In this document: piece after piece, positions 651 to 19,761 of the stretch
Position numbering within the stretch: position 1 is the stretch's first letter
Layout: each line of letters opens with the position of its first letter
IMG/VR virus record: IMGVR_UViG_3300013121_000018
Span: 43,582 to 107,581 of that record
Origin: a virus
Taxonomy: Duplodnaviria > Caudoviricetes
Length of the DNA: 64,000 nucleotides
Reading direction: 5' to 3' (one strand)
Notes under the pieces: generated by a model
The model's database searches: none
What the model was told of the DNA's origin: nothing
What the model saw: only the letters and a program-made list of their open reading frames with translations
Made by a program: the position numbers and the translations under genes

Positions 651-652
651 CA

Positions 653-3091: not shown

Positions 3092-3702
3092 ATATAGAAC
3101 AGCTTATTCAAAAAGCAGAATTGGATATTAGATTTTATGCTGAAAGAGCAGAGCATCATACAAGATACAAGGGAGTTGTAAAAACTCGTTTGATGCAGCC
3201 AAACGGTTCTAGACCAGATTATACATATGCTTTTTTATTCTCAAGCAGTGATAGTAACTGTGGTTTGATTTATTTAGACCATGTTACAAGTTTTGAAAGA
3301 GTGCTTCCTTACACATACGGGTCTTCTGTAGGAAAAGCGTTATATGCTATAGTATCAAAAATAAGTCCCGATGATAAAAGGAGAATGGAGCTTTCGCATA
3401 AATTCTTTTATTATTATCTTTATAACACATTGAAAGAGTTGAGAAAAGATTCTGAATATTTTAGAAAAAATTTATTATTTTGTCATGTTTCTATAGGCCG
3501 GAGGAAGCATGATTATGAAATGACAGACTCTTATAAATTTTTTAGTCCTTTATTTGATTCATCGATGATTTCACCCATGAATAAGAATAGTGAAAACTAT
3601 CAACTTCATGGTATTATTGATTTTGAAAAAGTTGGCTTTATCCTAAGTCAACCTTTTAGTAAAGAACTAGAAGATTTGATAAATGCATATACTGATGCCT
3701 AA
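3088..3702 (+). CDS. Hypothetical protein
   Basis: ATGA overlap; 204-aa ORF. Confidence 0.75.
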   Translation: MNIEQLIQKAELDIRFYAERAEHHTRYKGVVKTRLMQPNGSRPDYTYAFLFSSSDSNCGLIYLDHVTSFERVLPYTYGSSVGKALYAIVSKISPDDKRRMELSHKFFYYYLYNTLKELRKDSEYFRKNLLFCHVSIGRRKHDYEMTDSYKFFSPLFDSSMISPMNKNSENYQLHGIIDFEKVGFILSQPFSKELEDLINAYTDA

Positions 3703-4183
3703 GAAAAAGCTTAAAAATCCTGACAATTGTCAGGTACTTTTATACATTGTTGAAAATAATCTGTCTACACCGATACCAGAAATAGATCCTGAAGACTTGG
3801 ATATGTTAATATTCATGAAAAAGATTGCTGTTGATTACAGTACAGGAACTTTGTATATACCTGAAAATAAAGAATTGAAAAGCTTTATTGAAGAGTATAG
3901 ACAAATGTTTAATCAGAAAAATATTAACTATCCGGGAAAAATGGATAGCGCTAAGTCACATGTGGATAAATTTAAAAAATTCTTTAAGGAGAATGATACC
4001 ACATATGACGAAGTATTACAGGTTACAAGAGATTATATTGTGGAAAATATAAACAAACCACAGTATATCATGAAATCTAGTAATTTTGTATCTAAGTATG
4101 AAAATAAAATGTTTAAGTCGGAGTTGCAAGGAAGGCTTGAAAACAAAAAACAAACTACAGTAAACAACTTGTTTTTAGAATGA
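3695..4183 (+). CDS. Helicase-adjacent replication protein (function uncertain)
   Basis: Lies immediately upstream of DnaB; FKKFF..TYDEVL..T..Y..YIMKSSNF pattern. Confidence 0.55.
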   Translation: MPKKKLKNPDNCQVLLYIVENNLSTPIPEIDPEDLDMLIFMKKIAVDYSTGTLYIPENKELKSFIEEYRQMFNQKNINYPGKMDSAKSHVDKFKKFFKENDTTYDEVLQVTRDYIVENINKPQYIMKSSNFVSKYENKMFKSELQGRLENKKQTTVNNLFLE

Positions 4184-4189
4184 TTGTAA

Positions 4190-4354
4190 ATGGATAAATT
4201 TAAAACGTTTTATGAATCTCTCGAAAGTCGTCAAAGACGCTTAAAAGAAGGGATTCCTACTTTAATCCCAATAAAGTTTCCAACACTGTCAAAGTATATT
4301 CCTGGTGTAATTCAGGATGACCAGGTTATTGTTACAGCAGGACAAGGTGTGGGT
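4190..4354 (+). CDS. dnaB: DnaB-like replicative helicase, exon 1; join(4190..4354,4634..5551), 360 aa
   Basis: MDKFKTFYESL...IPGVIQDDQVIVTAGQGVG joins exon 2 KSRF to rebuild the Walker A motif GQGVGKS. Confidence 0.85.
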
Positions 4355-4633
4355 GGATACAAAATGTAAGGTTTATAATATAAATTAATTTTTGCCCACA
4401 ATAAATCGGATGAATTGCTGGAAAATCCTGAAGAGGACAATCAGCAGCCAAGTTAAAGTTTAAATGACTTTAAAAGGTTCAACGACTAGGTATTGAAACT
4501 AATTTACTTAGAATATAATATACCCAAGAGCGTCCGACATTCTAATGGAATGATGATATAGTCTGAACTGCATGTATAACTTGAAAAGAAGATGCAGAAT
4601 TCAAGGATAAAGAACCTTGAAGATAACAAATTG
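4355..4633 (+). ncRNA. Group I intron (ORF-less, 279 nt) in dnaB
   Basis: Exon ends in U. IGS GCCCACA (4394-4400) pairs with exon UGUGGGU. Core elements AATTGCTGGAAA, AATCAGCAGCCAAG, GTTCAACGACTAG and GATATAGTCTGAAC are present; terminal G at 4633. Confidence 0.92.
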
Positions 4634-5551
4634 AAAAGCCGTTTTGTACGAAAAGTTTTTGTGAAGGATATTATCGATTATGCAAATCAATCTGGATTAG
4701 AAGTACACATTATTCTCAATTCTTTAGAAGAATCTGAAAATAAGGTTATTTCTACATTGGTTGCAAGTGACATTTATCGTAGATATGGTGTTCAGGTTAA
4801 TTATTATGACCTGAATAATTATTCTACAAAACCGATGTCATCTGAACAAATGAAAATGATTGCGGAATCGGAAGGTGCAATTGAAGACTACATGAAGTAT
4901 GTTGATATTGTACACATATCAAATCCTACTGGATTCTACAAGTATGTAATGGACTATTTGTATTCTACAGGTACATTTCTTTTGAAAGGACAACCTTTAA
5001 AGGAAAAGAAATATTACTCAACTGAATGGGATACTTATATTCCAGACAATCCAGCAAGAATTGTAGTTGCGATTTCAGATACAATGAATAAGTATCAACC
5101 GGAGAATGGTGACTTTTATCGTACATTAAGGACATTTTCAGAGTTTTACAGCCGAAATCTTTTAGGATTAAGATGTGGAGTCATCTCCATAATAATCCAA
5201 CAGCAGAAGGGCTCTAAAGAAGCCATAGATACTAATTTCAGAGGAGCAACTATCATTGAGAAGCTTAAACCAAGTATTGATGCTTTAGCAGACATAACCG
5301 GTAGTGCTCAAGATGCAACTTTGATTTTAGGATTATTTTCTCCTCTAAAGTTTGGAGAATGTAACTATAATGGTTATCCTGATTTAACAAAGCTTAACGG
5401 TAAATTTCGAGTACTTTCTGTATTAAAAACTAGAGAAGGTGAATTGGAACAAAACAATGAAATTCCTTTATTTTGTCAATTAGCAATTGATGAATTTGAA
5501 GAATTACCATTACCAAAAGAAAGTGAACTTTTAAAAGCTTACTACAAATGA
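4634..5551 (+). CDS. dnaB: DnaB-like replicative helicase, exon 2
   Basis: SLEES, ISD, IIIQQQ, P...L.D..GSAQDATLILGLFSP and LKTREG SF4-helicase motifs. Confidence 0.85.
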   Translation, partial: KSRFVRKVFVKDIIDYANQSGLEVHIILNSLEESENKVISTLVASDIYRRYGVQVNYYDLNNYSTKPMSSEQMKMIAESEGAIEDYMKYVDIVHISNPTGFYKYVMDYLYSTGTFLLKGQPLKEKKYYSTEWDTYIPDNPARIVVAISDTMNKYQPENGDFYRTLRTFSEFYSRNLLGLRCGVISIIIQQQKGSKEAIDTNFRGATIIEKLKPSIDALADITGSAQDATLILGLFSPLKFGECNYNGYPDLTKLNGKFRVLSVLKTREGELEQNNEIPLFCQLAIDEFEELPLPKESELLKAYYK

Positions 5552-6048
5552 TTTATGTTGATGCAAATAAGTATCCAGAAGTAAAACAAATTAAAACTGT
5601 TGAAGAATTTGTATACTGGTATTATGACAATCATAATCCAGCGACTTATCACAATGAAACTTGCAGATTTAATCAGCTACAATGTATGGCAGGATGCAAT
5701 CGAAGTTTTGGAGATATGTTGGAGCTATGTGCTACATATTTTCCAGGAACAACTGAAGAAGATTTAGCATATATTTGGAAAGATTTGTGTATTAAAGGTA
5801 GGTTAAATACATTTTGCTGTCCTGATATTAACAGAATTGTGTCATATTTTGAATTCTTAGAAGAAGACGAATATACTCCAGAAGAAATTAAGAATTTTGA
5901 TTGGCAAAGTGCTAATTGGAATTCTAGTATATTTGATTGTTATGGCTATGACAATTATTATGAGGATGATTACAGTATTGAAGCAATTAAAGAATTTGCA
6001 GAAATAAAACAAAAAAAGAAACAAAAAGAATTAGAAAAACAAAATTAA
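5548..6048 (+). CDS. Hypothetical protein, paralog family A (RSFxD..CxxYF)
   Basis: Shares motifs with 6849..7301 and 20962..21378. Confidence 0.75.
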   Translation: MIYVDANKYPEVKQIKTVEEFVYWYYDNHNPATYHNETCRFNQLQCMAGCNRSFGDMLELCATYFPGTTEEDLAYIWKDLCIKGRLNTFCCPDINRIVSYFEFLEEDEYTPEEIKNFDWQSANWNSSIFDCYGYDNYYEDDYSIEAIKEFAEIKQKKKQKELEKQN

Positions 6049-6052
6049 GTTT

Positions 6053-6844
6053 ATGATTAAGTTACCAGTAGCGCCAAGCGCACCCAAAACCAAAAACGCA
6101 AAAAGAATGTTGATTGCATCTCAACCTAAAGTTGGGAAAACGAGTGCTGTAATGGCATTACCAAATTGTTTAGTAATAGACCTAGAATCTGGAGCAGACC
6201 AATATCCAGGAATGTCAATTGATGTTAATGAAATTGCAAAGAAGATTTCTGCTGAAAATGATATTCCTTATTTGGAAGCTAAACTAGAAGCATATTTTAG
6301 TGTAGTAAATGAAATTAAAAATATGGATCATAAATATGACTATATTGCAATTGATAATACTACACGATTGGAAGATATGGCTTCTTATTATGCAACAATG
6401 TTGTATAAGAAAAGTACTATCGGAAAGAATTTTAAAGGAGAAGACGTTGTAAGTGAATTACCTAGTGGTGGTGGTTATCTCTGGTTAAGAGAAGCTTTTG
6501 ATAGGCTTGTTGATGCTGTTGATGGCTTGCCTAGAATTTGTAATATTTACATCGGTCACTTGAAGAAATCTTCTATTACTAAAAACGACCAAAGTATTAC
6601 TGCTTTGGATTTGGAACTGTCCGGAAAAGGTAAAACTATTCTGACATCGTTAATGGATGCTAATGGTTTCCTTAGAAGGGAGAAGTCAACCAACAAGAAT
6701 ATTTTAAGCTTTAAAACAAGTGAAACGGACTTGCTTACTGGAGCAAGAACTATGCACTTAAGAGGTAATGAATTTCTACTTTCAGAATTAACAGATGATG
6801 GAAAATTCATTACTTATTGGGATAAAATTTTCTTAAAACAATAA
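6053..6844 (+). CDS. AAA_24 / Sak4-like recombination ATPase
   Basis: SQPKVGKT, IDLESG, IAIDN, GGGY.WLR, IGH motifs. Confidence 0.85.
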   Translation: MIKLPVAPSAPKTKNAKRMLIASQPKVGKTSAVMALPNCLVIDLESGADQYPGMSIDVNEIAKKISAENDIPYLEAKLEAYFSVVNEIKNMDHKYDYIAIDNTTRLEDMASYYATMLYKKSTIGKNFKGEDVVSELPSGGGYLWLREAFDRLVDAVDGLPRICNIYIGHLKKSSITKNDQSITALDLELSGKGKTILTSLMDANGFLRREKSTNKNILSFKTSETDLLTGARTMHLRGNEFLLSELTDDGKFITYWDKIFLKQ

Positions 6845-6848
6845 CAAA

Positions 6849-7301
6849 ATGCAGAGATTAAAATTAAATAAAAAAGATGAAGCTGATGCTAATATAGGTT
6901 CTCTAGAAGATTTTTTATCATGGTATTTTAAAAACAGTCAGCCGGAAACATATAACTATAATGGAGATTTGCAAACTTCTAGAGGAAAATATAGATCGTT
7001 TTCTGATATACTCAGCTTATGTTGTAATTATTTTCCAGACTGTACAGAAAAAGATTTGGCTAAGGTTTTAATTTCTTTTTGGGAAAAAAGAAACATTCAT
7101 GCATTATTTTGTAGTAACATTGGAAAAGTAGTATTTTGTGAAAGGCATAATAATGACCCTAATATAGATTTGCCCAGTTTAATTTCTCCAAAATATTTTA
7201 ATCCAAATAATCCAGATGCTTATGCTCAATCCCATAATCAACCAACTAAAGTAGGAGTAGATGGACACTCCTTCATTGAAATTTACAACTTAACAATTTA
7301 A
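6849..7301 (+). CDS. Hypothetical protein, paralog family A
   Basis: PETY..LQ...RSFSDIL.LC.NYFP..TEKDLA...C.NIGKVVF. Confidence 0.75.
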   Translation: MQRLKLNKKDEADANIGSLEDFLSWYFKNSQPETYNYNGDLQTSRGKYRSFSDILSLCCNYFPDCTEKDLAKVLISFWEKRNIHALFCSNIGKVVFCERHNNDPNIDLPSLISPKYFNPNNPDAYAQSHNQPTKVGVDGHSFIEIYNLTI

Positions 7302-7306
7302 TAATT

Positions 7307-8128
7307 ATGTTCGACAACAATCAAGAACAACTCCAAAAAGGCTCTGGCCAACAACAACTTTTCACCGGTCTGTATCCATTAAGGATTGTAGGAATTAACC
7401 CTACTGTAGAACAGCTTACCAATATTATTGGTGAAGGTGCTTCTAAATTTAAGGTTGACTACAGTGTAGGACAGTATGGAAAACCTGTTACGTTTTGGTT
7501 TTCATCACCTGACAATAAAGTGAAACCTTTTAGCAAGACAATATTTCTTAAAGAAGAAACTATTGTCGTTCAAGATTCTGGAAAAACAATGCTGTTGAAT
7601 GACAGTACAGGACAATACGGAACTGTTCAGTCAGCCTGGGCAGTATCTCCAGAGGATGTTCCACTATGGTTCTCTAAAGACGGTATTCGTCCTGCAAATA
7701 AGGGAGAATATGAATATTATGACCTACTGGTTAAATTTCTTCGTTTCCGTGACAAGGAAGGTGGAAAGACTTATGTAGAATTTCTTTCTGAAGAGAAAGT
7801 AGATTTTGCATCAGTTATTAATGGTGATGACAGTGCGTTGCATAATCTAGCCGATTATTTTATGGATAATGCAAGTACTTGTGTAATTTTGCTGACAGTT
7901 CGTAGTGGTGAAAAGAATTACCAAGATTGTGAACTTGGTAATTGTGTTTTTGGTCAGAATTCTGTTACCGATAAAGTAATTGAAAGGGCACAAAAACTCA
8001 ATTCAAATGCTGATTATCCTATCAGCAAAAACGAATTCAGCTTTGAATTTGCAGAGTATACCGGAGCATCTGCTCCACCCACACCTAAAAAGGTAGACGC
8101 TCCTGCAAAGAAGCAAAGTTGGATTTAA
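7307..8128 (+). CDS. Probable single-stranded DNA-binding protein
   Basis: Located between the Sak4-like ATPase and primase; FTG..P.RIVGINPT N-terminus as in crAss-like SSBs; flexible Pro/Ala tail. Confidence 0.55.
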   Translation: MFDNNQEQLQKGSGQQQLFTGLYPLRIVGINPTVEQLTNIIGEGASKFKVDYSVGQYGKPVTFWFSSPDNKVKPFSKTIFLKEETIVVQDSGKTMLLNDSTGQYGTVQSAWAVSPEDVPLWFSKDGIRPANKGEYEYYDLLVKFLRFRDKEGGKTYVEFLSEEKVDFASVINGDDSALHNLADYFMDNASTCVILLTVRSGEKNYQDCELGNCVFGQNSVTDKVIERAQKLNSNADYPISKNEFSFEFAEYTGASAPPTPKKVDAPAKKQSWI

Positions 8129-8141
8129 AAAATCCATAAAT

Positions 8142-9137
8142 GTGTTTAAAAATAAAACACAACTTCTAACAAAAGTAACGCCGGACATGATTGCTAGTAA
8201 TAGTGATTATGTCTGGCTTATTTTTTTTGGTGAATTGCCGTCTTATGGTAAAAGATTTTATTCTCCTTTCAGGTCTGATAGAAAGGCTGGTTGTAGATGG
8301 TCGTACAATAATAATCAATGGTGGTTGGTAGATAATGCTGGTCACAATGGTAAACTTGCTTGGAGCATCTATGATTTTGTATCATGGTTGTATCCAACAT
8401 ATACGGCTAAAGAAGTGTATCATTTAATTGCCAGTCGATTGGTTGAAACTGTTCCAAATATTCAAACCATTAGAAGACCTAATGTAGCATCTGTTAAAGA
8501 TAACAATATCATTATTAAGTTTGAATATACAGATTGGACAGAAGATGATTATTTTTCTAGAATGTTTGACATTGACCTAAATTATTTGAATCAACAACCA
8601 TATTATAAAGTTGTTAATTATTGGGCAAATTCTAGAAAAGACAACACTTTAAGAAAAAATCCTTTTCATTCACCAAAAAGTGTAGAAACGATTGCTTATT
8701 ATTTTGAAGACACAGACCATACTAAGCTGTATTTCCCTGCAAAAAATGATTTTAAATGGTATAGCAATTGTAATGCTGATGATATATTTGGAGAACACAG
8801 ATTGAAGGAATATGACAACTCTCATATTGTAATTACTAAGTCTGCAAAAGACGAAATGATACTAAACTATCATTGTAATCTTCAAACATTAGCAGTACAA
8901 TCAGAGGCAATTACTTCCAATAAAAAATTAAATGATTTATGCAATCAATTTTCTCAAAAAATTATTTACTTCGACAACGATGACCCAGGAAGAAGAAATT
9001 CAAAGACTTTGGGAGAAAGCGTCGGAGCGTTATGCATCTTTAATGGAGACACAGAAGGAAAAGACGCTGCCGAGTTTTATGCACTCCAAAACAACAAGGA
9101 GAAATTCAAAGAAGGAATTAACAACAAATTCAAATGA
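8142..9137 (+). CDS. DNA primase (TOPRIM)
   Basis: SPFRSD..AGC N-terminus, ITKSAKD, QSE, FDNDDPG, KDAAE. Confidence 0.85.
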   Translation: MFKNKTQLLTKVTPDMIASNSDYVWLIFFGELPSYGKRFYSPFRSDRKAGCRWSYNNNQWWLVDNAGHNGKLAWSIYDFVSWLYPTYTAKEVYHLIASRLVETVPNIQTIRRPNVASVKDNNIIIKFEYTDWTEDDYFSRMFDIDLNYLNQQPYYKVVNYWANSRKDNTLRKNPFHSPKSVETIAYYFEDTDHTKLYFPAKNDFKWYSNCNADDIFGEHRLKEYDNSHIVITKSAKDEMILNYHCNLQTLAVQSEAITSNKKLNDLCNQFSQKIIYFDNDDPGRRNSKTLGESVGALCIFNGDTEGKDAAEFYALQNNKEKFKEGINNKFK

Positions 9138-9138
9138 T

Positions 9139-9933
9139 ATGAAAGAAAAAAGTATTAAATCGACAATGTTTCCCCCAGATTTGCATAGGGGGCAACTGTT
9201 GAAAAACGTAGGTAAAACGGGTGAACGCTACTTTGGTAGCATGGATTATGTTATTGTAAATGATGTTGGACGAGATAGAATGCTTGTTACAGGTTTTAAT
9301 AAAGCTGCTCAACCTATGAGTATGGTGACCGTTAGTATTTCTGAGTATGAATCATTAACATCCTTAACTGGAGTATTAACGCCTTATGAGACAGAAAATA
9401 GTGTTAAATTTGATATTCGGCCTATTAAAGAAAGATTATTGGAACTTCCAGCAATTGAGAGAATTCTTCCATCAAATCTTAGGATTGATGAAGAACTATT
9501 TAATCTTGTAAAAGATGGGACGATTCCAAGTCAAGATGAACTAAGGATTTTGGTACTTAGGTATCATAAAGCCTTGTGTACTGCAGAAGAAATTGTTACT
9601 TTGTATGATAGTGTTATATTTGGTGATGAAAAAGAAAAAATGACTGCAAATACACCAAACATTCCTGACGGACAAATTGGTGTACATGAAGACAAATTCT
9701 CTTGGTCATTAGGAGGAACGACTACTTTCGCTGAAGATCCTCTTCCTTATTTTATAGATCCTACTATAACATTAAAAAGACCAACAGGAGCTACAATAAA
9801 ATCTTCAGCAGATACACCTCCAACTGGATTTTGGACTTATGAAGGTACTGATAAATTTCAAAAAGTTGAAGAAAACACTGAAGAAGAACATGATGAGGAT
9901 TCTGAATTTATGGAAGGAGATAGTCCATTTTAA
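9139..9933 (+). CDS. Hypothetical protein with acidic SSB-like tail (..GDSPF)
   Basis: In frame with ORF 8932..9933; ATG at 9139 follows the primase stop. Confidence 0.7.
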   Translation: MKEKSIKSTMFPPDLHRGQLLKNVGKTGERYFGSMDYVIVNDVGRDRMLVTGFNKAAQPMSMVTVSISEYESLTSLTGVLTPYETENSVKFDIRPIKERLLELPAIERILPSNLRIDEELFNLVKDGTIPSQDELRILVLRYHKALCTAEEIVTLYDSVIFGDEKEKMTANTPNIPDGQIGVHEDKFSWSLGGTTTFAEDPLPYFIDPTITLKRPTGATIKSSADTPPTGFWTYEGTDKFQKVEENTEEEHDEDSEFMEGDSPF

Positions 9934-9941
9934 TAACAATT

Positions 9942-10649
9942 ATGCTAAGTAAATTAAATATACATGAAAGTTGGAATGATATTTTCGTTCCTCTTTTAAG
10001 TAGTGATACAGGACAAGAATTGTTGCTACAGTTAGGTGATAAGTATCATCCTACAAAAGAAAGTATTTTCAGAGCATTCAGTATTCCTAAAGAGGACGTA
10101 TGTCTTATTATAATAGGTCAAGATGTTTATCCTGATAAAAGACTTGCAACTGGATTAGCTTTTGGAGTACCTCCAGGAAAAGACTCTGTTTCTTTGAAAA
10201 ATATAAGAACAGAAATTTATCGAGATTTCCACGATGATCCTACAAGTGATATTTTCCTTATGAAAGAGGACGAATTTAACTTCTTATTCGATAACAGTTT
10301 AGAATATTGGCAAGAACAAGGTGTTCTTTTATTAAATTCTGCATTAACTTGTGGAGGAACTCCTGGTGATCATTGGGATATATGGCAACCGTTCATGTCA
10401 TTATTAGTTACACAGCTTCCAGATGTACCTACAGTATTATTTGGAACTAAAGCAGCAACGTTGAAAGCTTTTATTAAAAATCCTATAATTGCTCCGCATC
10501 CAGCTTCAGATTCCTATGGAGGAGTCCGTAAGTTTTATGGATGTGGTGTATTTAGAGAAATACAAGAAAAAATACCAGACTTCAAATGGATAGAATACTT
10601 AAGTATTTCCTCACTTATGGAGGATACGACGGGGGATTTGCCTTTTTAG
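9942..10649 (+). CDS. ung: Uracil-DNA glycosylase (family 1)
   Basis: GQDVYP, ATGLAF, SLKNI, QGVLLLNSALT, H...W, HPA motifs. Confidence 0.92.
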   Translation: MLSKLNIHESWNDIFVPLLSSDTGQELLLQLGDKYHPTKESIFRAFSIPKEDVCLIIIGQDVYPDKRLATGLAFGVPPGKDSVSLKNIRTEIYRDFHDDPTSDIFLMKEDEFNFLFDNSLEYWQEQGVLLLNSALTCGGTPGDHWDIWQPFMSLLVTQLPDVPTVLFGTKAATLKAFIKNPIIAPHPASDSYGGVRKFYGCGVFREIQEKIPDFKWIEYLSISSLMEDTTGDLPF

Positions 10650-11164
10650 GTAAATCTGTTAAGAATATTAACGATGCGGATTTGATTATTTTTACTGGTG
10701 GAGAAGATATTTCACCAGAATTATATAATCAAAAAGCAAATACACATACAAGAGGTGTTAATATCAAACGTGATAGGCATGAAGTTGCTATATTCAACCT
10801 CTATAAAGATATTCCTAAACTTGGTGTCTGTAGAGGACACCAACTAATTTCTGTGTTAGAGGGTGCTTCTTTGATTCAGCACGTTGATGGTCATCATACT
10901 AACCATAATATGAAAACGTTTGATGATCATACTATTGGAGTTACATCATGTCATCATCAAATGGTTATCTTCGACAAAGACATGGAAGAAGGTAAAGACT
11001 ACTATCACTTAGGATGGTCTTCACCAGCAAAAGCTACTATGTATGTTGGAGAAAAAGGTATAGATATATATAGGGACGGTGTTAAACTTGCTAACAGATA
11101 CTTTGAAGAATCCGAAATGGCTTTTTTTCCAAAATCAAATAGCTTGACTGTACAATTTCACCCT
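10586..11164 (+). CDS. Class I glutamine amidotransferase (PuuD/peptidase C26-like), exon 1; join(10586..11164,12201..12338), 238 aa
   Basis: TGGEDI, GVCRGHQ, SCHHQ, QFHP; the catalytic Glu is supplied by exon 2. Confidence 0.88.
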
Positions 11165-11335
11165 AAACATTTGGGGCTTGCATAAGTGATTGTGCATGAA
11201 ACATCGCTTAAATTCGGTGAACTCCTTCAATATTTTGGAGAATACCGAGCCAAGCTATTCTTAGGTTAATAGAGAATAGAAGGTGTAACGACTACAGAGG
11301 TGAGCCTAACAATAATCCTCTGCACGAAAAAGCGA

Positions 11336-11983
11336 TTACTTACTTTTATCAAAAACATCTTTATACTGCCACTTATATCCACCACAGGTAACATCTCTAC
11401 CATTACAAACGTGTCTTATATTTTGTCTCCAAACATTATTTTTAATAGCAGCGTTTTGTAATGAGTAATATTCTTCAACAATATTTTCTTCAAAATCTAA
11501 TTTATATACTGGTCGGCCAAGTTTTCTTTTTAAAGATTCTGGTCTATTTTTTCCTAATAAGCCTTGTCTTATTTTTTCACAAGTTTCTTTTCTTACTTTT
11601 CTTTTAAAGGTAATAGGATGCTTCATGTTGGTGGAAATATTAAAACCTTTTTTTACTGAATTATATTTATTTATGTAATAAAGTTCTCGTTCCCATAAAA
11701 ATTCATATGAGTTTTCATTAGGAATAAGTTCTAAAATATCAAATATAAAATTATTGACTCCGTATTTATTATACGCTCGTTGCAATTTTATATTATAATG
11801 CGCATTTTTTTCAAGTTTTAATAAATGGTTTTTCCATCTTTTATGAAAATTAGATTTGTTTCCTTTTGTGGAACCTATATAAGCTTTGTTATTTTTAACA
11901 CAAAGTATTATATAAATACCTGTAGATTTAATGTTTACCACAGATTCTGCAGTAGTAATGATGTTTGTATAAATTTTTACCAT
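11336..11983 (-). CDS. GIY-YIG homing endonuclease (intron-encoded, NUMOD1-like C-terminus)
   Basis: GIYII..NNKAYIGS, RW..H, ERE.YYI, GFN, YYSLQNAA..GGYKWQY. Confidence 0.92.
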   Translation of the reverse strand: MVKIYTNIITTAESVVNIKSTGIYIILCVKNNKAYIGSTKGNKSNFHKRWKNHLLKLEKNAHYNIKLQRAYNKYGVNNFIFDILELIPNENSYEFLWERELYYINKYNSVKKGFNISTNMKHPITFKRKVRKETCEKIRQGLLGKNRPESLKRKLGRPVYKLDFEENIVEEYYSLQNAAIKNNVWRQNIRHVCNGRDVTCGGYKWQYKDVFDKSK

Positions 11984-11996
11984 ACTTGTTTTTTTA

Positions 11997-12024
11997 CAAA
12001 GATAACTCTGTTTAAAAGTACAAA
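11997..12024 (-). promoter_or_regulatory. Bacteroidota-type sigma70 promoter for the antisense HEG
   Basis: Minus strand TATCTTTG (12004-11997) matches TAnnTTTG, 13 nt before the ATG. A TTTG lies 16 nt upstream, a slightly short spacer. Confidence 0.65.
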
Positions 12025-12200
12025 ATAGTTTTATGTAAAAAAATTAACAATTTTTGGTAATAACTAAGTTATAATGATAAAACAATTCTATATGAATGTA
12101 AATTCAATCATATGGAATGTAAGTAAATGATATAGTCTGAACTTACAGGATGATAAACTGTAAGAAGTATAGGATAAAGAGCCTATACGATAACATAATG

Positions 12201-12338
12201 GAATGGATGGACAATATGCTTGGACAAAAATATGTTAAAGAATTAGTTTTCAAGTTAGTTTCTAATAAACTTGAAGAACACATAATTCAATCAAAATTGA
12301 ACATTGAATATGCACAAGAGCTCGATGCCCGTTTTTAA
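12201..12338 (+). CDS. Class I glutamine amidotransferase, exon 2
   Basis: EWMDNMLGQKYVKELV... completes QFHPEWM. Confidence 0.85.
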   Translation, partial: EWMDNMLGQKYVKELVFKLVSNKLEEHIIQSKLNIEYAQELDARF

Positions 12339-13008
12339 TATTGTTAACTACAGTATAGGTAAATACTGTGAGGCTACAGATTACTTAGATCCACATCTAA
12401 CATTATTGGAAGAAAATGGAAAAGATTTACATTGTTTATTTAAAGCATGTAGATGTAAGGACTTCTTCAACGAAGTTTTTAATAAAATATATACAGGTAA
12501 CGACAGTACAATTTATGACTTTTCCACGAACAATATTGATGTATCTAAGGTTAAAGATTCTGAATACTTTTATCTCCTTATGGTATCAAGAGAAGCCAAT
12601 GATGCAAAAATATTTGATGCTGAAAACATTCAAAATTTCTTAGATTTATTTAATCCGAAATCTCAAGTAGTAAAAACAAACATGGAAAAAGGTATTGTCA
12701 TTCGGTTTCATAGAAACTGGACAGACAGACCTTATCTGTTGTCAATGTTTTTAAATTTATGTAGAATAGGTTCCTTGTATAACAACGAAGGTTGGGAATC
12801 GTTTAAACAATTGTTGAGCAGCAAAGGCTTGTTTTGGAAACAAGGTTATGCAAGTTCACCTTGTTTAAATCAAGTAGCAAACAGTTTAAGAGTAATTGAA
12901 GATTATCTGAATGGAATTGTTCATGAACAAGCTTATTCAGATTATTCAAATACAAATGATTTACACAACCGTAGTGGAGCAGTAAGCTTCACTGCTAAAT
13001 TAAAGTAA
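12304..13008 (+). CDS. Hypothetical protein within the amidoligase cluster
   Basis: 234-aa ORF with a CRCKDFF motif. Confidence 0.75.
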   Translation: MNMHKSSMPVFNIVNYSIGKYCEATDYLDPHLTLLEENGKDLHCLFKACRCKDFFNEVFNKIYTGNDSTIYDFSTNNIDVSKVKDSEYFYLLMVSREANDAKIFDAENIQNFLDLFNPKSQVVKTNMEKGIVIRFHRNWTDRPYLLSMFLNLCRIGSLYNNEGWESFKQLLSSKGLFWKQGYASSPCLNQVANSLRVIEDYLNGIVHEQAYSDYSNTNDLHNRSGAVSFTAKLK

Positions 13009-13010
13009 TA

Positions 13011-13682
13011 ATGAAACAAATAGGTCTTCTTTTGAAGGTAGATACCGGAAACGTCACAATTAATGACAGGTATATGCATTGGGTATCACAATTTGGAAAC
13101 GTGCAATTCATCAACCCTCTTGATGAAAATGTATATGATTTAGATTTACTAATACTTCCTGGTGGAAGTGATGTGGATCCAGCAAGGTATGGTGAAAAAC
13201 CAAAACCATATTGTCAGAAACCCAATATCTTTGACGAATGGTTCGATAAGTTTATGTTGCCGAAATATATTGCAAAACAAATTCCTATTTTTGGAATTTG
13301 TAGAGGTTTTCAAACTTTGGCTGTACACTTTGGTGTTAAACTAACACAACATTTATATGCTCCGTATAGTGACCCAAGAGGAAAACTTGTAGAGAATTTG
13401 GAATTTAATCTTGAGGTACAACCGTCTGATAGGGCATATAACATTGCTAAAATGGTTAAAAAAGGAAGTCCTGTTAAAGTAAACAGCTTACACCATCAAG
13501 GATTTTATCAATGGGATTGTGAAAAAAATCCTATGATACAAATTTTAGCAACTGCAAAAGAAGCATTGAATGTTGAAGTATTTAAAGTAAAGGATATGCC
13601 AATTTGTGCTGTACAATACCATCCAGAAGAGATTGCATGTAACTATGCAGAAGCTCTTGTAAAAAGTTTATTAACAAAGTAA
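13011..13682 (+). CDS. Class I glutamine amidotransferase / gamma-glutamyl hydrolase (peptidase C26)
   Basis: PGGSDV, GICRGFQ, VNSLHHQ, VQYHPE. Confidence 0.92.
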   Translation: MKQIGLLLKVDTGNVTINDRYMHWVSQFGNVQFINPLDENVYDLDLLILPGGSDVDPARYGEKPKPYCQKPNIFDEWFDKFMLPKYIAKQIPIFGICRGFQTLAVHFGVKLTQHLYAPYSDPRGKLVENLEFNLEVQPSDRAYNIAKMVKKGSPVKVNSLHHQGFYQWDCEKNPMIQILATAKEALNVEVFKVKDMPICAVQYHPEEIACNYAEALVKSLLTK

Positions 13683-13690
13683 TAACTTAA

Positions 13691-14545
13691 ATGACAAATA
13701 AAATTCAAAATATAACGTTGGGTTCAGACCCAGAGTATTTTGTAAAACACATTCCTACTAACACCATCGTTAGTGGGATTGGTTTTGTAGGTGGTACAAA
13801 AAATGAACCGCTTATTTTAGATAATGAAACTGGTATCACTCGTACAGAGGATTGTACCTTAGCAGAATTTCAGTTTCCACCAGTTACTTCTAAAGAGGAT
13901 TGGTTGTATATGTTTAAGAAACTTGTTCAAAAAGGTAATGAACACCTTGGACAATATGATATGTGTCTAGTAACAGGTTCCTCACATATTTATGACGATG
14001 CTGAACTTCTTCATCCAATGGCAAGAACATTTGGATGCTCTCCAAGTACTAATGCTTGGACAAAAGAAACACAGTATTCTTGTGGGCCAGAAGAAGCTGG
14101 TAATTTGCGTTCAGCAGGTGCACATATTCATATTGGAACTACTTCTGACATTTCTGAAGATGATGCATATAATCTTATTCGTGTTTTGGATGTATTTCTG
14201 GGAGTACCTTCTGTTTTGATTGATACAGATACTCAAAGGAGGAAACTTTACGGAAAAGCCGGAGAATGCCGTTTTAGGGTTATCAAAGGTGTTATCGTAA
14301 TGGAATATCGCACTTTAGGTGGCAATATGCTGGAATCGGAAGAGTTGATTGGTTGGATTTATGACCAAACTATGAAAGCAATTGAGTATTACAACACCGA
14401 GGGTGTAGAAAAAGTGAATGCTTTCCGTGAAGAGATTATTGATTGTATTGATAATGTTAAAGAAAATCTTGCAAAAGATTTGATGTCAATCTTTAATCTA
14501 ACAATTCCTTATTTGGAGTATGTTAAAATCCATAACCATGCATAA
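13691..14545 (+). CDS. phiEco32-like COOH-NH2 ligase type 2
   Basis: LGSDPE, GGTK.EP, ED..LAEF, FGC.P, RSAGAHIHIG, RR.LYGKAG..R, EYRTL. Confidence 0.9.
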   Translation: MTNKIQNITLGSDPEYFVKHIPTNTIVSGIGFVGGTKNEPLILDNETGITRTEDCTLAEFQFPPVTSKEDWLYMFKKLVQKGNEHLGQYDMCLVTGSSHIYDDAELLHPMARTFGCSPSTNAWTKETQYSCGPEEAGNLRSAGAHIHIGTTSDISEDDAYNLIRVLDVFLGVPSVLIDTDTQRRKLYGKAGECRFRVIKGVIVMEYRTLGGNMLESEELIGWIYDQTMKAIEYYNTEGVEKVNAFREEIIDCIDNVKENLAKDLMSIFNLTIPYLEYVKIHNHA

Positions 14546-14885
14546 AATAGCAGTATACGGAAGTTTAAGACAAGGTGAATATAATTTTGAGCGAATGTCT
14601 TATATAGGGGATATTCAATACGAAACAACAACAACCATTCAAGGATGGGACTTGTATAGTCTTGGTATGTATCCTGCAATAAAAAAGGGTACTGGTACAA
14701 TTGTTGTAGATATTTTAAACGTTGGTGATGAAGTATTGGATTTTATTCGTGGAATGGAATTTGGTGCAGGGTATCATGAAGAAACAGTCAATGTTGATGG
14801 ACAAGATTGTTTCATTTATGTATACAATTATGAACTATCTAGAAACCAGGTACTGTCTGGTGACTGGAAAAAACAAAACGATTAA
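14538..14885 (+). CDS. Gamma-glutamylcyclotransferase (AIG2/GGACT-like)
   Basis: IAVYGSLRQG, LY.LG.YPA, E...Y motifs. Confidence 0.9.
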   Translation: MHKIAVYGSLRQGEYNFERMSYIGDIQYETTTTIQGWDLYSLGMYPAIKKGTGTIVVDILNVGDEVLDFIRGMEFGAGYHEETVNVDGQDCFIYVYNYELSRNQVLSGDWKKQND

Positions 14886-14886
14886 T

Positions 14887-16341
14887 ATGTGTAATATAAG
14901 TGGAGCATTAAAACTACCGAATAAGAAATACCACAATAGTGATAAATTGAAACTTCTAGCACTATATGGTGCTGAAAGAGGTAAGGATTCTTTTGGTATT
15001 TGGTATGATGATAAAGTACTTTATCATGTAAGGAGTACTTATGCAGTAACAGATGGCAACAGTTGTAGTGTATTTTTGAAATATCCGTTTCCAGAAAATA
15101 TTCAGTCTAATATTGTACTTATGCACAATAGGCAGGCTACTGTAGGTGTTGTTAACGAAAATGCAGCACACCCATATATCATTGATAATGAAATGGTGGG
15201 AATGAAGAATGGTACTATTCACAATTATGAATATCTTGCCGATAAATATAAAATTAGTGAAAAAGAGTATGAGACTGATAGTGAACTCATACTGAAAATT
15301 ATTCACAGGCATGGTTTGGAAGTCTTAAAAGAATATGTAGGTGGATGTGCAATTGCTTGGTTCAACTTGTCAGAACCCGACACTCTGTATCTCTGGAAAG
15401 GTGCTTCAATGGAATACAATAGGTATGAAGAAGAACGTCCTCTATTCTACACATTCGATACAAACGGTACATTGTATTTCAACTCTTTGGAACCACCTCT
15501 AAAGTATGTTAATAATACAAGGACACCTATCCATAGTTTAAAAGAAAACACGGTATTTGCCTTTAAAAACGGTAAAATATCGGTTGTTGCTGAATTTGAT
15601 CGTTCAAAAATGTCTCAGTCAAAACCATACAACAATACTGTATGGAACGGTTATTATGAAAAAGCAACCAATTCTTCAAAAGTAAAACATCTGCCGTCAC
15701 CTAAACTTATTGAACCTTGTCCTCAAATAAGGGCTGCTGGAAACATTTACTATTACAAAGGTAAATACTGGAAAAACGGTCATATTGTTGAAGGTGTGCT
15801 TAATATCGATACTGATAGTGGAGAAATTTTATACGATAATAGTGGGACAAACTTGTTTTTTTACAAAGGTTGGTGGGTAAAGGATGCATTTACTTATAAT
15901 AGGTTGAATTTTCCAGGAAATGAAGATGCTCCTGATATTTTTGACATGCACCATGATGCTGTCACTGAATGTATTGACGGTTTCTTTTACAGAAATGGAA
16001 GTAAGTTGAATTATACATTCAAACCTAAGTTTGGTTATAACAATTACACCTTTTTAAACGGTTCCTTAACAGCAATTGCTGCAAATTTTGGGCCAGAGAA
16101 AACTGATAACACTAGAGATGCTCTTCTTGATGCTGTTAATTACTATGTGTTTGGTAACTATACACAATGTTATTATAGCAGCAGAGAAGTTGCAGAAGCA
16201 GGTATTAAAGAGATTGATCCGACTATTAAGTTGAAGTGGACTACTGTTAATCAGATTCTGGAAGCATTGAAAAATTCAAAAAAAGCTAAAAACGAAGAAG
16301 AAATTGAAGAACAGCTTCTTCTTCAAAATTGGACAAGTTAA
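14887..16341 (+). CDS. Class II (Ntn) glutamine amidotransferase with C-terminal extension
   Basis: True start MCNISG (Cys2 nucleophile); RG.DSFG, HNRQATVG, AHPY, NGTI.N, TDSE, ERPL. Confidence 0.88.
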   Translation: MCNISGALKLPNKKYHNSDKLKLLALYGAERGKDSFGIWYDDKVLYHVRSTYAVTDGNSCSVFLKYPFPENIQSNIVLMHNRQATVGVVNENAAHPYIIDNEMVGMKNGTIHNYEYLADKYKISEKEYETDSELILKIIHRHGLEVLKEYVGGCAIAWFNLSEPDTLYLWKGASMEYNRYEEERPLFYTFDTNGTLYFNSLEPPLKYVNNTRTPIHSLKENTVFAFKNGKISVVAEFDRSKMSQSKPYNNTVWNGYYEKATNSSKVKHLPSPKLIEPCPQIRAAGNIYYYKGKYWKNGHIVEGVLNIDTDSGEILYDNSGTNLFFYKGWWVKDAFTYNRLNFPGNEDAPDIFDMHHDAVTECIDGFFYRNGSKLNYTFKPKFGYNNYTFLNGSLTAIAANFGPEKTDNTRDALLDAVNYYVFGNYTQCYYSSREVAEAGIKEIDPTIKLKWTTVNQILEALKNSKKAKNEEEIEEQLLLQNWTS

Positions 16342-16343
16342 AA

Positions 16344-17939
16344 ATGAGTACAAAAAAAAGTAAAAATAAGTTTGCTGCTCCTACATTAGCTGCTGTAAGT
16401 GAACCCAGTGTTGTAACATACACTGGGGATACTTATCCCAAAAGTGCCTGTAGGCGTATTGATAATGACTATTATCTTATCGGTGATAAAAATATCAAAG
16501 ATTCTGGTCAAGTATTTCTTATCAATGATGTCTGGTATCGTCTGTCAACTAATAAGATTACATGGGACTATCGTAAAGAAGAATATGTAATTATTAGTAG
16601 TAGCACTTTGATTTACGGCTTGGTGGATGTCACAAAAGACAAAGAACCGGTTATGGGATATTTTACACCAGATGACCTGAAAGATATTATGGTCTATGAT
16701 TACGGTGCGTCTGAATTTATGGCTATGGATGAAAATATGGCATTAAAACTCCCAAATGCGGTACGATGTGTTTCAGATGGTGCTATAGTATTTTCCAAAC
16801 TTAAAAACGTAAATTCTCTTAGTAGATTTGAAAAACATGCTAAAAGAAATTATCCCTCGTTTGATTTGAATAATTATGGATTTGCAAATAATCCTGGCGT
16901 TTCTCTTGTAAAAGAAAGGAATGCTAAATATATTAAAAGTAAAGAATTTACAGTAAATCCTACTATTGCAGAAATTGCAAAATTTCTTAAAGGCTATACA
17001 TTTGGAGCAGAATTTGAAACTGCATGTGGTACATTACCAACAAAAGAACTTCTTAAAACAGGATTAATTCCTGTTAAAGATGGTAGTATTTCTGGACATG
17101 AGTATGTTACTCTGGTTCATCAAGGTGAACTAGGATTACAGCTTTTGATGGATGCAGCAAATGCATTAAGTACATGGACAACTCCAGATCAGTATTGTTC
17201 CTTACATATCCATATCGGAAATGTTCCTAGAACAAAAGAGTTTATCATCGCTATGTATATGTTGTCATACATGTTACAGCATGAATTACATGAAATCGTA
17301 GCTCCATACAAAAAAGATGTCGGTTATCTTGCATCTAAGAATCATGGCGCTAAAGACCACTGTAAATACTTGCAATCACTGAATCTATTTGGAAATCGCA
17401 TTTATGATGTTCCTAAAGAACAAAAACAAAGAGAAATCGATGTTGTCTTCAAAAATGTATTCGCATGGTTGAATGATGGACAGGGAGAAAATGTTAGAAA
17501 TAATTTCGGAACAGGAGTACATGTTAGACAAGACCGTCCTAAATGGGAATGGCAGTCTAGGTATTACTGGATGAATTTTTGCAATTTAGTATTTTCACCA
17601 CATCATACAGTTGAGAACAGGTTGCATAGTGGAACAGTGAATCCAACTAAGACGTTGAATTGGTTATTGATTACTGTGGCAATGATAGATTTTGCCATTA
17701 ATAATCAAGAAGAGATTATTCGTGGCAAAACGAAGTATGCACTTGAGGATATTGTAAACAGATACTATAGAGTATCTGATAGTGGCAACATTATTGCCGA
17801 TTATTTATTGGCATATATTCGTGACAGGAAAAACAATTTCTTTAATTTGTCTATGATGGGAGATATGTATGGCAATGAATTTGTAAATAAAAATACTTCC
17901 TTTGAACCTTGGGAAGTTTTGATTAAAAGACTCAAGTAA
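16344..17939 (+). CDS. Putative amidoligase (COOH-NH2 ligase fold)
   Basis: FGAEFET, DGSI.G.EYVT, CSLHIHIG, RY..MN, TVE.RLHSGT. Confidence 0.85.
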   Translation: MSTKKSKNKFAAPTLAAVSEPSVVTYTGDTYPKSACRRIDNDYYLIGDKNIKDSGQVFLINDVWYRLSTNKITWDYRKEEYVIISSSTLIYGLVDVTKDKEPVMGYFTPDDLKDIMVYDYGASEFMAMDENMALKLPNAVRCVSDGAIVFSKLKNVNSLSRFEKHAKRNYPSFDLNNYGFANNPGVSLVKERNAKYIKSKEFTVNPTIAEIAKFLKGYTFGAEFETACGTLPTKELLKTGLIPVKDGSISGHEYVTLVHQGELGLQLLMDAANALSTWTTPDQYCSLHIHIGNVPRTKEFIIAMYMLSYMLQHELHEIVAPYKKDVGYLASKNHGAKDHCKYLQSLNLFGNRIYDVPKEQKQREIDVVFKNVFAWLNDGQGENVRNNFGTGVHVRQDRPKWEWQSRYYWMNFCNLVFSPHHTVENRLHSGTVNPTKTLNWLLITVAMIDFAINNQEEIIRGKTKYALEDIVNRYYRVSDSGNIIADYLLAYIRDRKNNFFNLSMMGDMYGNEFVNKNTSFEPWEVLIKRLK

Positions 17940-17945
17940 AAGAGA

Positions 17946-18527
17946 ATGAACGGAAAAAGAAACAGAACTAAGGGGCATGATCTCGAAAGAGATTGTGCTT
18001 CCCTTTTTAGAAATTTGGGATTTAGTTTTGCTAAAACTACTAGAGCAGAGTCTAAAACTTTAGATGATGCCGGAGTTGATATAGCGAACATACCCTTTCT
18101 GGTACAGTGTAAAGCAGGATACGATGACAGATACCCAAGATTTCCTGAAATTTATAAAGGAATCAGGGAAAACATTAAAAAAGCATATCCTAAAGACAGT
18201 CCTTTACAGGAACTTCCTGTAATTCTGATACATAAGCCAAATAGAAATGCCCCATATTGGAGCATTGACCAAGCTTTTGCTTTGGAATTATTTAAGAAAG
18301 CAACTGTTAATGCAGATATTATTGCAACTGCAATTGATGTTTTGACAAAAGCAAAACAAGAAATTCTTGCTTTAGAAGAAGCTTTACAACAATCTAATGA
18401 GAAAGTAGAAGAATACACAATTTATGATGATGTAGAGGATGATGATAATATAATTCATAGTACACCAATTTTTAATGAAACTTATGATCAGATTGTGGCA
18501 TTACTAGACACACTAAAAATAATATAA
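17946..18527 (+). CDS. Holliday junction resolvase (PD-(D/E)XK, Hjc-like)
   Basis: KGH.LER, DDAGVDI, VQCK motifs. Confidence 0.8.
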   Translation: MNGKRNRTKGHDLERDCASLFRNLGFSFAKTTRAESKTLDDAGVDIANIPFLVQCKAGYDDRYPRFPEIYKGIRENIKKAYPKDSPLQELPVILIHKPNRNAPYWSIDQAFALELFKKATVNADIIATAIDVLTKAKQEILALEEALQQSNEKVEEYTIYDDVEDDDNIIHSTPIFNETYDQIVALLDTLKII

Positions 18528-18531
18528 CTGT

Positions 18532-19140
18532 ATGCCAAGAGCCGCAAGTAGTGGTGCAAAAATACACTCTTTCACGCCAAACAGAACCTCAAAATACCTA
18601 CTGGTCGCATTAAAAGATTGGGGAACAGCGTTTAACCAAGAATTTGAAACAGTTATAGAAAACATTTTAAAATTTGGAATACATGATGCTAAATACTATG
18701 AGGAAATAACAAATAATATGTTTATTCTTTTCAAGGTAAATTCAAACTTGCAAAAATTTCTAGACTTTGTCAAAGAACATCCTGCTTATGTTCACGATTA
18801 CAAATGCGGAAATAATCATATGTTAGTAGTATCTTTTCCTAATAAACATAGTCATTTAGTACCATTGTTTTTAGAAGGAAAATACTCAGAACTTTATTCT
18901 ACAGAAGATGTTGATAGATTGTTTCCTAAAAAAGTATTGATTGGAAATAAAGAAGAAATATATTCTTATTATAGAATATTAACTAAAGATAGTACATATA
19001 TTCCGATATTTCAGTCAATAATAAAAAAAGAATTTAATGTTGGTGATAAATTTGTTCCAAAAGCTAATGAAATTGTTGAACTCGATTTTCCTCCAAAATT
19101 GGAAGAAGAAATTTTTAATTATGGGTTTAATGATTCATAG
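18532..19140 (+). CDS. Conserved phage hypothetical protein
   Basis: FLEGKYS and ELDFPP..EEE motifs. Confidence 0.75.
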   Translation: MPRAASSGAKIHSFTPNRTSKYLLVALKDWGTAFNQEFETVIENILKFGIHDAKYYEEITNNMFILFKVNSNLQKFLDFVKEHPAYVHDYKCGNNHMLVVSFPNKHSHLVPLFLEGKYSELYSTEDVDRLFPKKVLIGNKEEIYSYYRILTKDSTYIPIFQSIIKKEFNVGDKFVPKANEIVELDFPPKLEEEIFNYGFNDS

Positions 19141-19534
19141 TATTGCTCTTGAGAATAAAATAAATATTATACCTCAAGATTCGGAGTGGAAACTGCTTAC
19201 AAAGGCAGTTTCCCTCGAATCTAAGGGAGAACCATTCATAGGACAACTATTCGTAGCACAAACAATTATAAACCGTAAAAACGGCTGTAATTGCCCTGTA
19301 AGAGAAGTACTTACTAAAAAGTTTCATAGTAATCCTAATTATATCAAATGGATTGAAGCAGAACCATTGGATACTGCTTTAATGAGAAAATTAAGAATAC
19401 TAGAAAATGTAAAGATACATAGCTTCTGGTATTTTTATAATCTAAAAACTGCTACAGATACAAAATTCCTAAGAGCTATGAAAAAGAAAAAACATAAACT
19501 TCAAATCTATAACCATATATTTGTTGAAAAATGA
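19121..19534 (+). CDS. SleB-like cell-wall hydrolase (Hydrolase_2)
   Basis: LL.KAV.LESKGEP..GQ..VAQ.IINR, YFYN, I.NHIF. Confidence 0.8.
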   Translation: MGLMIHSIALENKINIIPQDSEWKLLTKAVSLESKGEPFIGQLFVAQTIINRKNGCNCPVREVLTKKFHSNPNYIKWIEAEPLDTALMRKLRILENVKIHSFWYFYNLKTATDTKFLRAMKKKKHKLQIYNHIFVEK

Positions 19535-19761
19535 CAACAATAACATACTTTGGAGTTACTACCGAAACAGGTGGTGGAAAAAGACCTATCAGAAAAAGAC
19601 ATAACCAAAATTATAAATTATATTCTTCTTATTATACAGAAGAAAAATTTCTTAGTTTAGGTAGAACATATGCGCTCGAATATCTTAAATTTAGAACAGA
19701 TGGTAAAGTGATAGGAAATGCACTTACAAGAATTAAAATTAATGATAAATATTTAACATGA
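19531..19761 (+). CDS. Hypothetical protein
   Basis: ATGA-coupled ORF. Confidence 0.6.
   Translation: MTTITYFGVTTETGGGKRPIRKRHNQNYKLYSSYYTEEKFLSLGRTYALEYLKFRTDGKVIGNALTRIKINDKYLT

Follow-up and report, generated by a model that had tools for sequence, protein, structure and literature searches.

We describe here a group I intron that splits the gene of an accessory class-I glutamine amidotransferase (GATase) in a crAss-like phage and that carries, on its opposite strand, a homing endonuclease gene (HEG) of the GIY-YIG family. The DNA analysed, which we call the window, is a stretch of 64,000 nucleotides and forms the last 64 kb (positions 43,582 to 107,581) of the IMG/VR virus genome IMGVR_UViG_3300013121_000018, a record of 107,581 nt that is ~97% complete; positions given below are those of the window unless the name of a contig or locus precedes them. 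The intron occupies 11165-12200 on the plus strand, where it separates the Pro and Glu codons of the HPE motif (HP/E, the slash marking the point of insertion). The reading that we favour, and regard as probable on the sequence features set out below, is that of a mobile subgroup-IA intron at HP/E whose P8 loop houses an antisense, I-TevI-like endonuclease gene that would be transcribed from a promoter of its own.

A group I intron interrupts the catalytic motif of a GATase gene

The first exon (10586..11164, plus strand) encodes a class-I GATase of the peptidase C26 type, with Pfam matches to Peptidase_C26 (E=2.8e-17) and GATase (E=7.3e-7), and ends with ...VQFHP. Its open reading frame (ORF, 10586..11185) reads ...SLTVQFHP as far as CCT (Pro, 11162-11164) and then continues through 21 nt of foreign sequence to a TAA at 11183-11185. 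The second exon (12201..12338, plus strand) starts with GAA (Glu, 12201-12203), reads EWMDNMLGQKY... and is in frame with the ORF 12150..12338. The 61 homologues of the enzyme found in databases, which are ~220-230 aa long, all have an unbroken HPE(W), the best of them reading VQLHPEWQDG, and the alignment of exon 1 to these proteins stops at the invariant H192 and P193. An uninterrupted HPE is likewise present in 80 of 80 related viral GATase loci found by a GATase-profile search, for which an alignment-based profile was required, exon 1 as a single-sequence query having retrieved no related loci; HPEWM occurs in many of these loci, and L106 reads HPEWMD. Since the motif is unbroken in the homologues, removal of 11165-12200 by splicing would restore the catalytic His-Pro-Glu motif exactly. 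An initial annotation of this DNA had placed the insertion between Pro and the catalytic Glu, and both the in-frame exon codons and the HPEW of the homologues bear this out. The public gene call for this locus, P0001, is a truncated GATase of 167 aa that ends at the in-intron stop, and its annotation does not include exon 2.

The 1036-nt insertion can be read as an IA-type group I intron from end to end, with the 5' splice site after U11164 and omega-G12200 as its last base. Its internal guide sequence (11168..11176, plus strand) offers GGGG (11173-11176) to the exon CCCU for P1, placing U11164.G11173 at the splice site, and CAUUU (11168-11172) to the GAAUG of exon 2 for P10. The ribozyme 5' core (11182..11336) comprises P2/J2-3, P3, P4, P5, P6/P6a, J6/7, the 5' strand of P7, P7.1 and P3', as judged by Rfam and by folding, and it scores 25.2 bits (E=5.1e-4) against RF00028 (Intron_gpI), over model positions 41-158 (P3 to P3'). 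The 3' part (12119..12200) supplies the 3' strand of P8, J8/7 (AAUGAUA), the 3' strand of P7 (UAGUC), P9, P9.1 and the tail GAUAACAUAAUG. P1, P10, P3 (AUCGC / GCGAU), P7 (GACUA / UAGUC), P9 (CUUACAG / CUGUAAG) and P9.1 (UAUAGG / CCUAUA) were read from the sequence, and the minimum-free-energy fold of the core, with the large loop swapped for GAAA, recovered P2, P3, P4, P5, P6a, P7.1, P8, P9 and P9.1. P8 itself is formed by TTACTTAC (11336..11343) and GTAAGTAA (12119..12126), which enclose a loop of 775 nt. The segment 12121-12210 (P8', J8/7, P7' and P9) matches 59 phage records by blastn, and the annotated matches of this 3' part, at 76-83% identity, lie in genes for DNA polymerase (Listeria and Enterococcus phages), terminase (Streptococcus) and tail proteins (Clostridium). 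Judged by its core and pairings, 11165-12200 is a genuine group I intron at HP/E, far beyond what chance would provide, and the extra P7.1 hairpin (CAGAGG / CCUCUG, ~11289-11316) between P7 (GACUA) and P3' (GCGAU) marks its subgroup as IA.

Intron-less and intron-bearing alleles

Public metagenome contigs were compared with the window over 9900-13700. A 349-nt contig from a bioreactor sample (run X1) has 2 differences over 10873-11160 (288 nt of exon 1) and is ~99% identical in the exons. Between its matches to 11160 and 12204 it has seven letters, TCCAGAG, where the window has CCCT+GAA, and therefore exactly 1036 nt (11165-12200) are absent and the allele reads CAT CCA GAG TGG (HPEW). Sequence from another study (run X2) covers 11823-12092 with 0 differences and 12118-12335 with 3, and represents the form with intron and HEG.

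No more than 7 nt from the insertion site, at 11161, 11164 and 12203 (exon positions -4, -1 and +3), the X1 allele has three synonymous differences from the window, such that the junction codons are CAT CCA GAG in the intron-less allele and CAC CCT/GAA in the intron-bearing one. All three differences favour ribozyme-exon pairing in the intron-bearing allele: in P1 a C-G pair replaces U.G and the obligatory U.G replaces A/G, and in P10 an A-U pair replaces G.U. This pattern fits co-conversion of the flanking exon bases or co-adaptation of a functional intron. As far as these alleles can tell, the intron is polymorphic, in the sense of presence and absence, and very probably mobile.

A paralogous GATase gene in the window (13011..13682) is uninterrupted and has the HPE codons CAT CCA GAA at 13620-13628; its His and Pro codons are those of the intron-less allele of the interrupted gene.

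An antisense I-TevI-like endonuclease gene with a promoter-like leader

The HEG (11336..11983, minus strand) encodes an I-TevI-like protein of 215 aa and lies antisense in the P8 loop. As the initial annotation had stated, its stop codon falls within the P8 stem: the minus-strand TAA is at 11336-11338, the 5' strand of P8 takes in this stop along with the last three codons, and the ATG (11983) faces the 3' strand of P8 across a leader of 135 nt. The protein matches the Pfam GIY-YIG domain (PF01541) with 45.1 bits (E=1.2e-11, cut-off 22.6), PHROG 314 'homing endonuclease' (E=7e-27) and the catalytic domain of I-TevI (1MK0/1LN0, E=4e-16), and the equivalents of GIY, YIG, R27, E75 and N90 are conserved. 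Its closest homologue, P0063 (226 aa, on a 107-kb contig), is 58% identical over 94% of the length and a second, P0064, is 56% identical; P0063 was not found among viral contigs, the C-terminus is conserved among the homologues, and a metagenome scan for relatives of the HEG gave identities of at most 47%.

Plus-strand transcripts are unable to encode the HEG and there is no close minus-strand gene, and therefore a promoter in or near the leader is needed if the HEG is expressed at all. The replication and accessory genes of window 1..27189 form a solid block on the plus strand, in which the HEG is the only credible minus-strand gene; the next minus-strand genes begin more than 15 kb away, past a convergent junction at ~27.2 kb. 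The leader (11984..12118, minus strand), which is A+T-rich and lies inside L8, would contain both the candidate promoter and the translation-start region. The initial annotation had drawn attention to TATCTTTG 13 nt upstream of the HEG, and this element is present on the minus strand at 12004-11997 (feature 11997..12004), with an A-rich gap (11996-11984) before the ATG at 11983. It matches the -7 box of Bacteroidota promoters (TAnnTTTG), and a TTTG, the candidate -33 element, is located 16 nt upstream of it.

The leader is also one of two related segments in the genome. Positions 11993-12087 resemble C1:15690-15783 with 74% identity over ~95 nt (E=1.8e-7), the local score of this alignment being 22 compared with 16.0 +/- 1.0 for dinucleotide shuffles. 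The copy corresponds to the 91-nt gap (C1:15691-15781; L002:1508-1592) between the portal gene and the operon of an acidic protein and the major capsid protein (MCP), a candidate control region of the capsid operon. In both copies TATAACTTAGTTATnACCAAAnATT is followed by GTTAnCTTTG, and the genome has no further copy; the block TATAACTTAGTTATTACCAAAAATT (12049..12073, minus strand), with the palindrome ATAAC-TTA-GTTAT, is similarly common to the leader and the region upstream of the capsid operon, with two genome copies only. The capsid-region copy further holds the palindrome ATAACTTAGTTAT and GTTAACTTTG, and the gene that precedes MCP there encodes an acidic protein of 345 aa.

Across the genome there are only four intergenic TAnCTTTG sites, all four of which face minus-strand genes; the TATCTTTG of the leader is one of them. 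Another, in the sequence TTATCTTTG, occurs at C1:35598-35606 (minus strand), 7.98 kb before the window and 106 nt upstream of a minus-strand HNH gene (C1:35129-35491), which is the other antisense HEG embedded in the plus-strand block. A hairpin, AATATGCTTAG...CTAAGCATATT, precedes this site, and the region upstream of the HNH gene has the 10-mer TTATCTTTGT in common with the GIY-YIG leader. The balance of these observations leans towards a promoter belonging to the HEG itself, a proposal that the duplicated capsid-operon leader supports better than the TAnnTTTG motif does. The cassette would then have captured a phage promoter region, probably a late one.

Several results weigh against the favoured reading. 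Of 123 ORFs, 11 have the motif TAnnTTTG in the 120 nt upstream, where ~12 would be expected, and the motif is thus not enriched there; in intergenic DNA (7.5 kb) it is found 22 times against 11.5 expected, a ~2-fold excess, in which the division into 14 sense and 8 antisense sites shows no significant strand bias. The optimal spacer in Bacteroidota promoters is ~19 nt, and the 16 nt between the -33 TTTG and the box is shorter. In the capsid-operon copy the box ends just 3 nt before the ATG, such that a -7 role is doubtful there, and no minus-strand terminator was found after the HEG. Outside the promoter, the C-terminus of the endonuclease (residues 170-204) resembles I-HmuI_NUMOD with 22.5 bits, below the cut-off of 27, and the 25.2 bits of the intron's 5' half are under the Rfam gathering score of 50 because the 775-nt insertion in the P8 loop splits the model. 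A scan for sigma-70-type promoters, a model that is unsuited to Bacteroidota, was uninformative, with 10 sites compared with 11.9 +/- 4.0 in shuffled sequence. The 'own host-type promoter' of the initial annotation is plausible: the match to TAnnTTTG is real, its TTTG stands at a spacer of 16 nt and the motif lacks enrichment before ORFs, and stronger support is given by the duplicated leader and by TTATCTTTG ahead of the other minus-strand HEG.

The statistical weakness of the motif is also the first point in favour of a silent passenger, that is, a HEG without a working promoter that is not expressed, in an intron that no longer moves and is just passed on by descent and spliced out. There is a precedent in T4 segD, a free-standing GIY-YIG gene that runs antisense to genes 23 and 24, for which no promoter can be identified and expression is presumably very low (PMC2988022), and the homologue P0064 is listed without the N-terminal GIY-YIG part. 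Against this stand the intact ORF of 215 aa with all catalytic residues and its full-length homologue at 58% identity, the similarity of the leader to the capsid-operon region, which exceeds chance, and the coexistence of intron-plus and intron-minus alleles in nearly identical phages, which fits recent mobility. We consider this alternative unlikely, and it is the one that fares best beside the reading of a mobile intron with a self-transcribed HEG.

HEG-less relatives of the intron

A second group I intron in the window lacks a HEG. It matches the Rfam model with 67.7 bits at 4364-4583, its span reads as ~4355-4633, and by our reading of the sequence it splits the Walker A motif (GQGVG/KS) of a helicase-like gene, exon 1 of which starts from the ATG at 4193 and exon 2 of which lies in the frame of the ORF 4592..5551. 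Its 3' tail (...GGATAAAGA.CC...GATAACA.A.TG) is homologous to that of the GATase intron, with P9 and P9.1 stems that differ but are compensated. No more introns were found at E<=0.01 when the rest of the genome was scanned with Rfam. Relatives without a HEG exist in other samples as well. A contig from run X4 that is ~86% identical to the core joins 11342 to 12120, leaving space for at most ~120 nt in the loop, and has an unrelated 5' exon; by these features it is a HEG-less relative of the ribozyme in another gene. L234 is a second such relative.

These ribozymes in other exon contexts (the X4 contig, L234 and the intron at 4355-4633) lend some colour to the idea of an independent cassette, by which the HEG invaded a HEG-less intron and targets the empty P8 loops of sister introns or some other site, the intron serving as a safe harbour and not itself homing by means of the HEG. 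The antisense orientation and the borrowed leader suggest a separate acquisition, and there are three other HEG cassettes of the free-standing type in the genome. The HEG-less sister intron in the window has nevertheless not been invaded, and the polymorphism that we see involves the whole intron and not the cassette. Composite mobile introns arising by HEG invasion are the accepted origin of mobile introns, and the idea thus bears more on the history of the element than on its present function; we think it improbable.

How rare is an antisense HEG in a phage group I intron?

Two surveys addressed the orientation of HEGs relative to group I introns. In the first, 82 loci retrieved with GIY-YIG queries were screened for a 9-mer core signature, which was located on the HEG's own strand in ~10 loci; co-oriented introns were confirmed by Rfam for L007 and L010, and in L010 the HEG sits between Rfam model positions 158 and 219 (P8). 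L010 (L010:4687-6373) is a metagenome contig in which the sense GIY-YIG gene in the P8 region is flanked by the 5' half (4687-4961) and the 3' part (5792-5824) of its intron, and a second intron follows directly (5915-6373). The 9-mer was on the strand opposite to the HEG in L034 (~600 nt away) and L060 (~4 kb away), both without Rfam support. L034, with its minus-strand core 9-mer ~600 nt upstream of the GIY-YIG gene, was examined as a possible antisense case and set aside, as there was no Rfam match at E<=0.01.

The second survey covered 89 occurrences of the core 14-mer GATATAGTCTGAAC in 80 IMG/VR loci, that is, sites sharing one exact 14-mer. Sense ORFs with a nuclease domain within ~1.5 kb numbered at least 18 (9 GIY-YIG, 5 HNH_3 and 4 LAGLIDADG_2), to which three sense HNH genes in L166 are added, and a nuclease domain was found in one of 40 antisense ORFs (L166:5114-5548). 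With at least 21 sense nuclease ORFs and 1 antisense, the statement of the initial annotation that intron HEGs of phages are usually co-oriented holds. An antisense ORF of 226 aa with an HTH domain beside the core 14-mer in L189 had no Rfam support for an intron and was left out of the count.

The antisense case in L166 (L166:4927-5683; IMGVR_UViG_3300025087_000044) is an HNH gene; the group I intron around it interrupts a capsid gene of the HK97 type. This intron belongs to the same family as the GATase intron, with the tail ...GATAAAGA..GATAACAAAATTG, and its HNH ORF (5114-5548) is read from the opposite strand, lies between P3' and J8/7 and has its 5' end towards the 3' strand of P8, as here. 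It differs from the GATase intron in its enzyme, which is HNH, and in its phage, which falls outside the crAss-like group. The leader of the L166 HNH gene lacks TAnnTTTG, and that genome has no second copy of this leader. The capsid gene itself has about eight or nine Rfam group I intron matches in 5 kb (L166:2900-7750), and of the introns in it three carry sense HNH genes and one the antisense HNH. By these counts the antisense layout is rare, at about one in 20 in the 89-site sample, though not without parallel: in the same loop it has arisen for two nuclease families that are unrelated to each other. A literature search for antisense HEGs in group I introns of bacteria or phages yielded only the cases in eukaryotic rDNA, which is no proof of absence; in a review of bacterial group I introns (PMC3984707) the words antisense, opposite and orientation are absent. 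Among elements of this well-known kind the present one is a rare variant, and both its host gene and its phage group are uncommon.

The phage and the surroundings of the intron

The genome encodes a Crass-type MCP (PF23898, 79.9 bits, above cut-off; C1:13019-14641) and giant minus-strand ORFs of 1296 to 3030 aa that resemble virion RNA polymerases, and because of these two features we assign the phage as crAss-like (Crassvirales). Its host is presumably a member of the Bacteroidota. The genes around the intron include two class-I GATases (peptidase C26), a COOH-NH2 ligase, a class-II GATase and an amidoligase. A 20-kb piece compared with a phage collection by megablast gave no match.

Discussion

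A model for the element is as follows. The intron has inserted between the Pro and Glu codons of the HPE motif in the accessory GATase gene. On the plus-strand pre-mRNA the ribozyme would fold around the 775-nt P8 loop, and P1, P10 and omega-G12200 would then direct the joining of CCU to GAA, restoring HPEW, steps that we propose on the basis of the structure and the intron-less allele. The HEG would be transcribed from its own promoter, most likely sited in the 135-nt leader within the loop. The -7 box of Bacteroidota type in this leader, and the leader's nature as a diverged duplicate of the segment that precedes the capsid operon, suggest that the HEG is expressed late and independently of splicing, in an antisense counterpart of the internal late promoters of the T4 intron endonucleases. 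Finally, the enzyme would cut intron-less GATase alleles in co-infecting relatives, with repair copying the intron and a few flanking exon bases, as suggested by the enzyme family and by the polymorphism of the alleles.

The three intron endonucleases of T4 (td/I-TevI, nrdD/I-TevII and nrdB/I-TevIII) are co-oriented with their host genes and use internal promoters of the late or middle class (Edgell et al., 2010, PMC2988022). In common with td/I-TevI, the element described here is an intron of subgroup IA that interrupts an enzyme gene of a phage at a conserved catalytic motif, and has a GIY-YIG enzyme with an I-TevI-type catalytic domain encoded in a peripheral loop; I-TevI is expressed from its own internal late/middle promoter, and here an own promoter is a candidate. 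Unlike in td, the HEG is on the opposite strand and plus-strand transcripts never encode it, and therefore no hairpin that sequesters the ribosome-binding site is needed. The endonuclease gene of T4 td is in the P6a loop, whereas that of the GATase intron is in P8. Unlike in the model for I-TevI, a T4-style operator mimicking the homing site is absent from the leader, where the best match to the 100-nt homing site scores 11, equal to the shuffle mean of 10.9. The host gene differs too, being an accessory GATase of an amidoligase pathway and not a gene of nucleotide metabolism, in a phage whose host is presumably a bacteroidote. With T4 segD the HEG shares its opposition to the surrounding phage transcription unit; segD is intergenic and apparently promoterless, whereas the present HEG lies within an intron behind a promoter-like leader.

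Antisense HEGs with their own promoter are known from group I introns in nuclear rDNA, for example the His-Cys box endonuclease gene of Didymium iridis Dir.S956-2/I-DirII (PMC3073962, PMC9548176). I-DirII is likewise encoded antisense inside a group I intron, and its own promoter works independently of the host transcription unit. It differs in being eukaryotic, with a Pol II promoter, a spliceosomal intron, a poly(A) tail, a His-Cys box and a location in an rRNA gene, whereas the present case concerns a protein-coding gene of a phage and a GIY-YIG enzyme. In the Crassvirales, self-splicing introns with endonuclease domains have been reported 'typically' in core genes (MCP, PolB and primase as well as ATP_43b), in a study that does not discuss the orientation of the HEG (Yutin et al., 2021, PMC7886860). 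Unlike those introns, one of the introns in the window is in an accessory GATase gene and the other in the P-loop of a helicase.

If the captured promoter is that of the capsid operon and is active late, minus-strand transcription might at the same time produce the enzyme and block splicing and expression of the GATase gene, by convergent transcription or by RNA antisense to P1-P8. The arrangement would then act as a timing switch, and an antisense layout in P8 would be a recurrent one that has been selected in this intron family, as in the HNH case of L166. We regard this extension as quite improbable. That the minus-strand transcript serves as a regulator that lowers splicing and expression of the GATase/ligase operon late in infection, whether through base pairing to exon 1 and the intron core or through convergent transcription, is very improbable, for while a transcript with no terminator after the HEG stop would run on and be complementary to P1-P8 and exon 1, the leader has no operator or homing-site mimic, and antisense-RNA control of splicing or of the ligase operon, which the initial annotation had suggested, is speculation.

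The mobile intron with a self-transcribed HEG that we favour would provide a well-bounded phage example in which the HEG is not expressible from the transcript of the host gene and for which intron-less and intron-bearing alleles are both available. It makes the expression and timing of such genes in phages of Bacteroidota addressable, as the candidate region is just 135 nt long and has a paralogue before the capsid operon. The assembly of intron and endonuclease into a mobile unit may be approached through the HEG-less sister introns that this genome and other samples contain, and the extent of exon co-conversion or co-adaptation through the three synonymous changes that fall exactly at P1 and P10. 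For the annotation of crAss-like phages it is a warning, illustrated by the truncated P0001 call, that introns can split accessory genes too and not just core genes.

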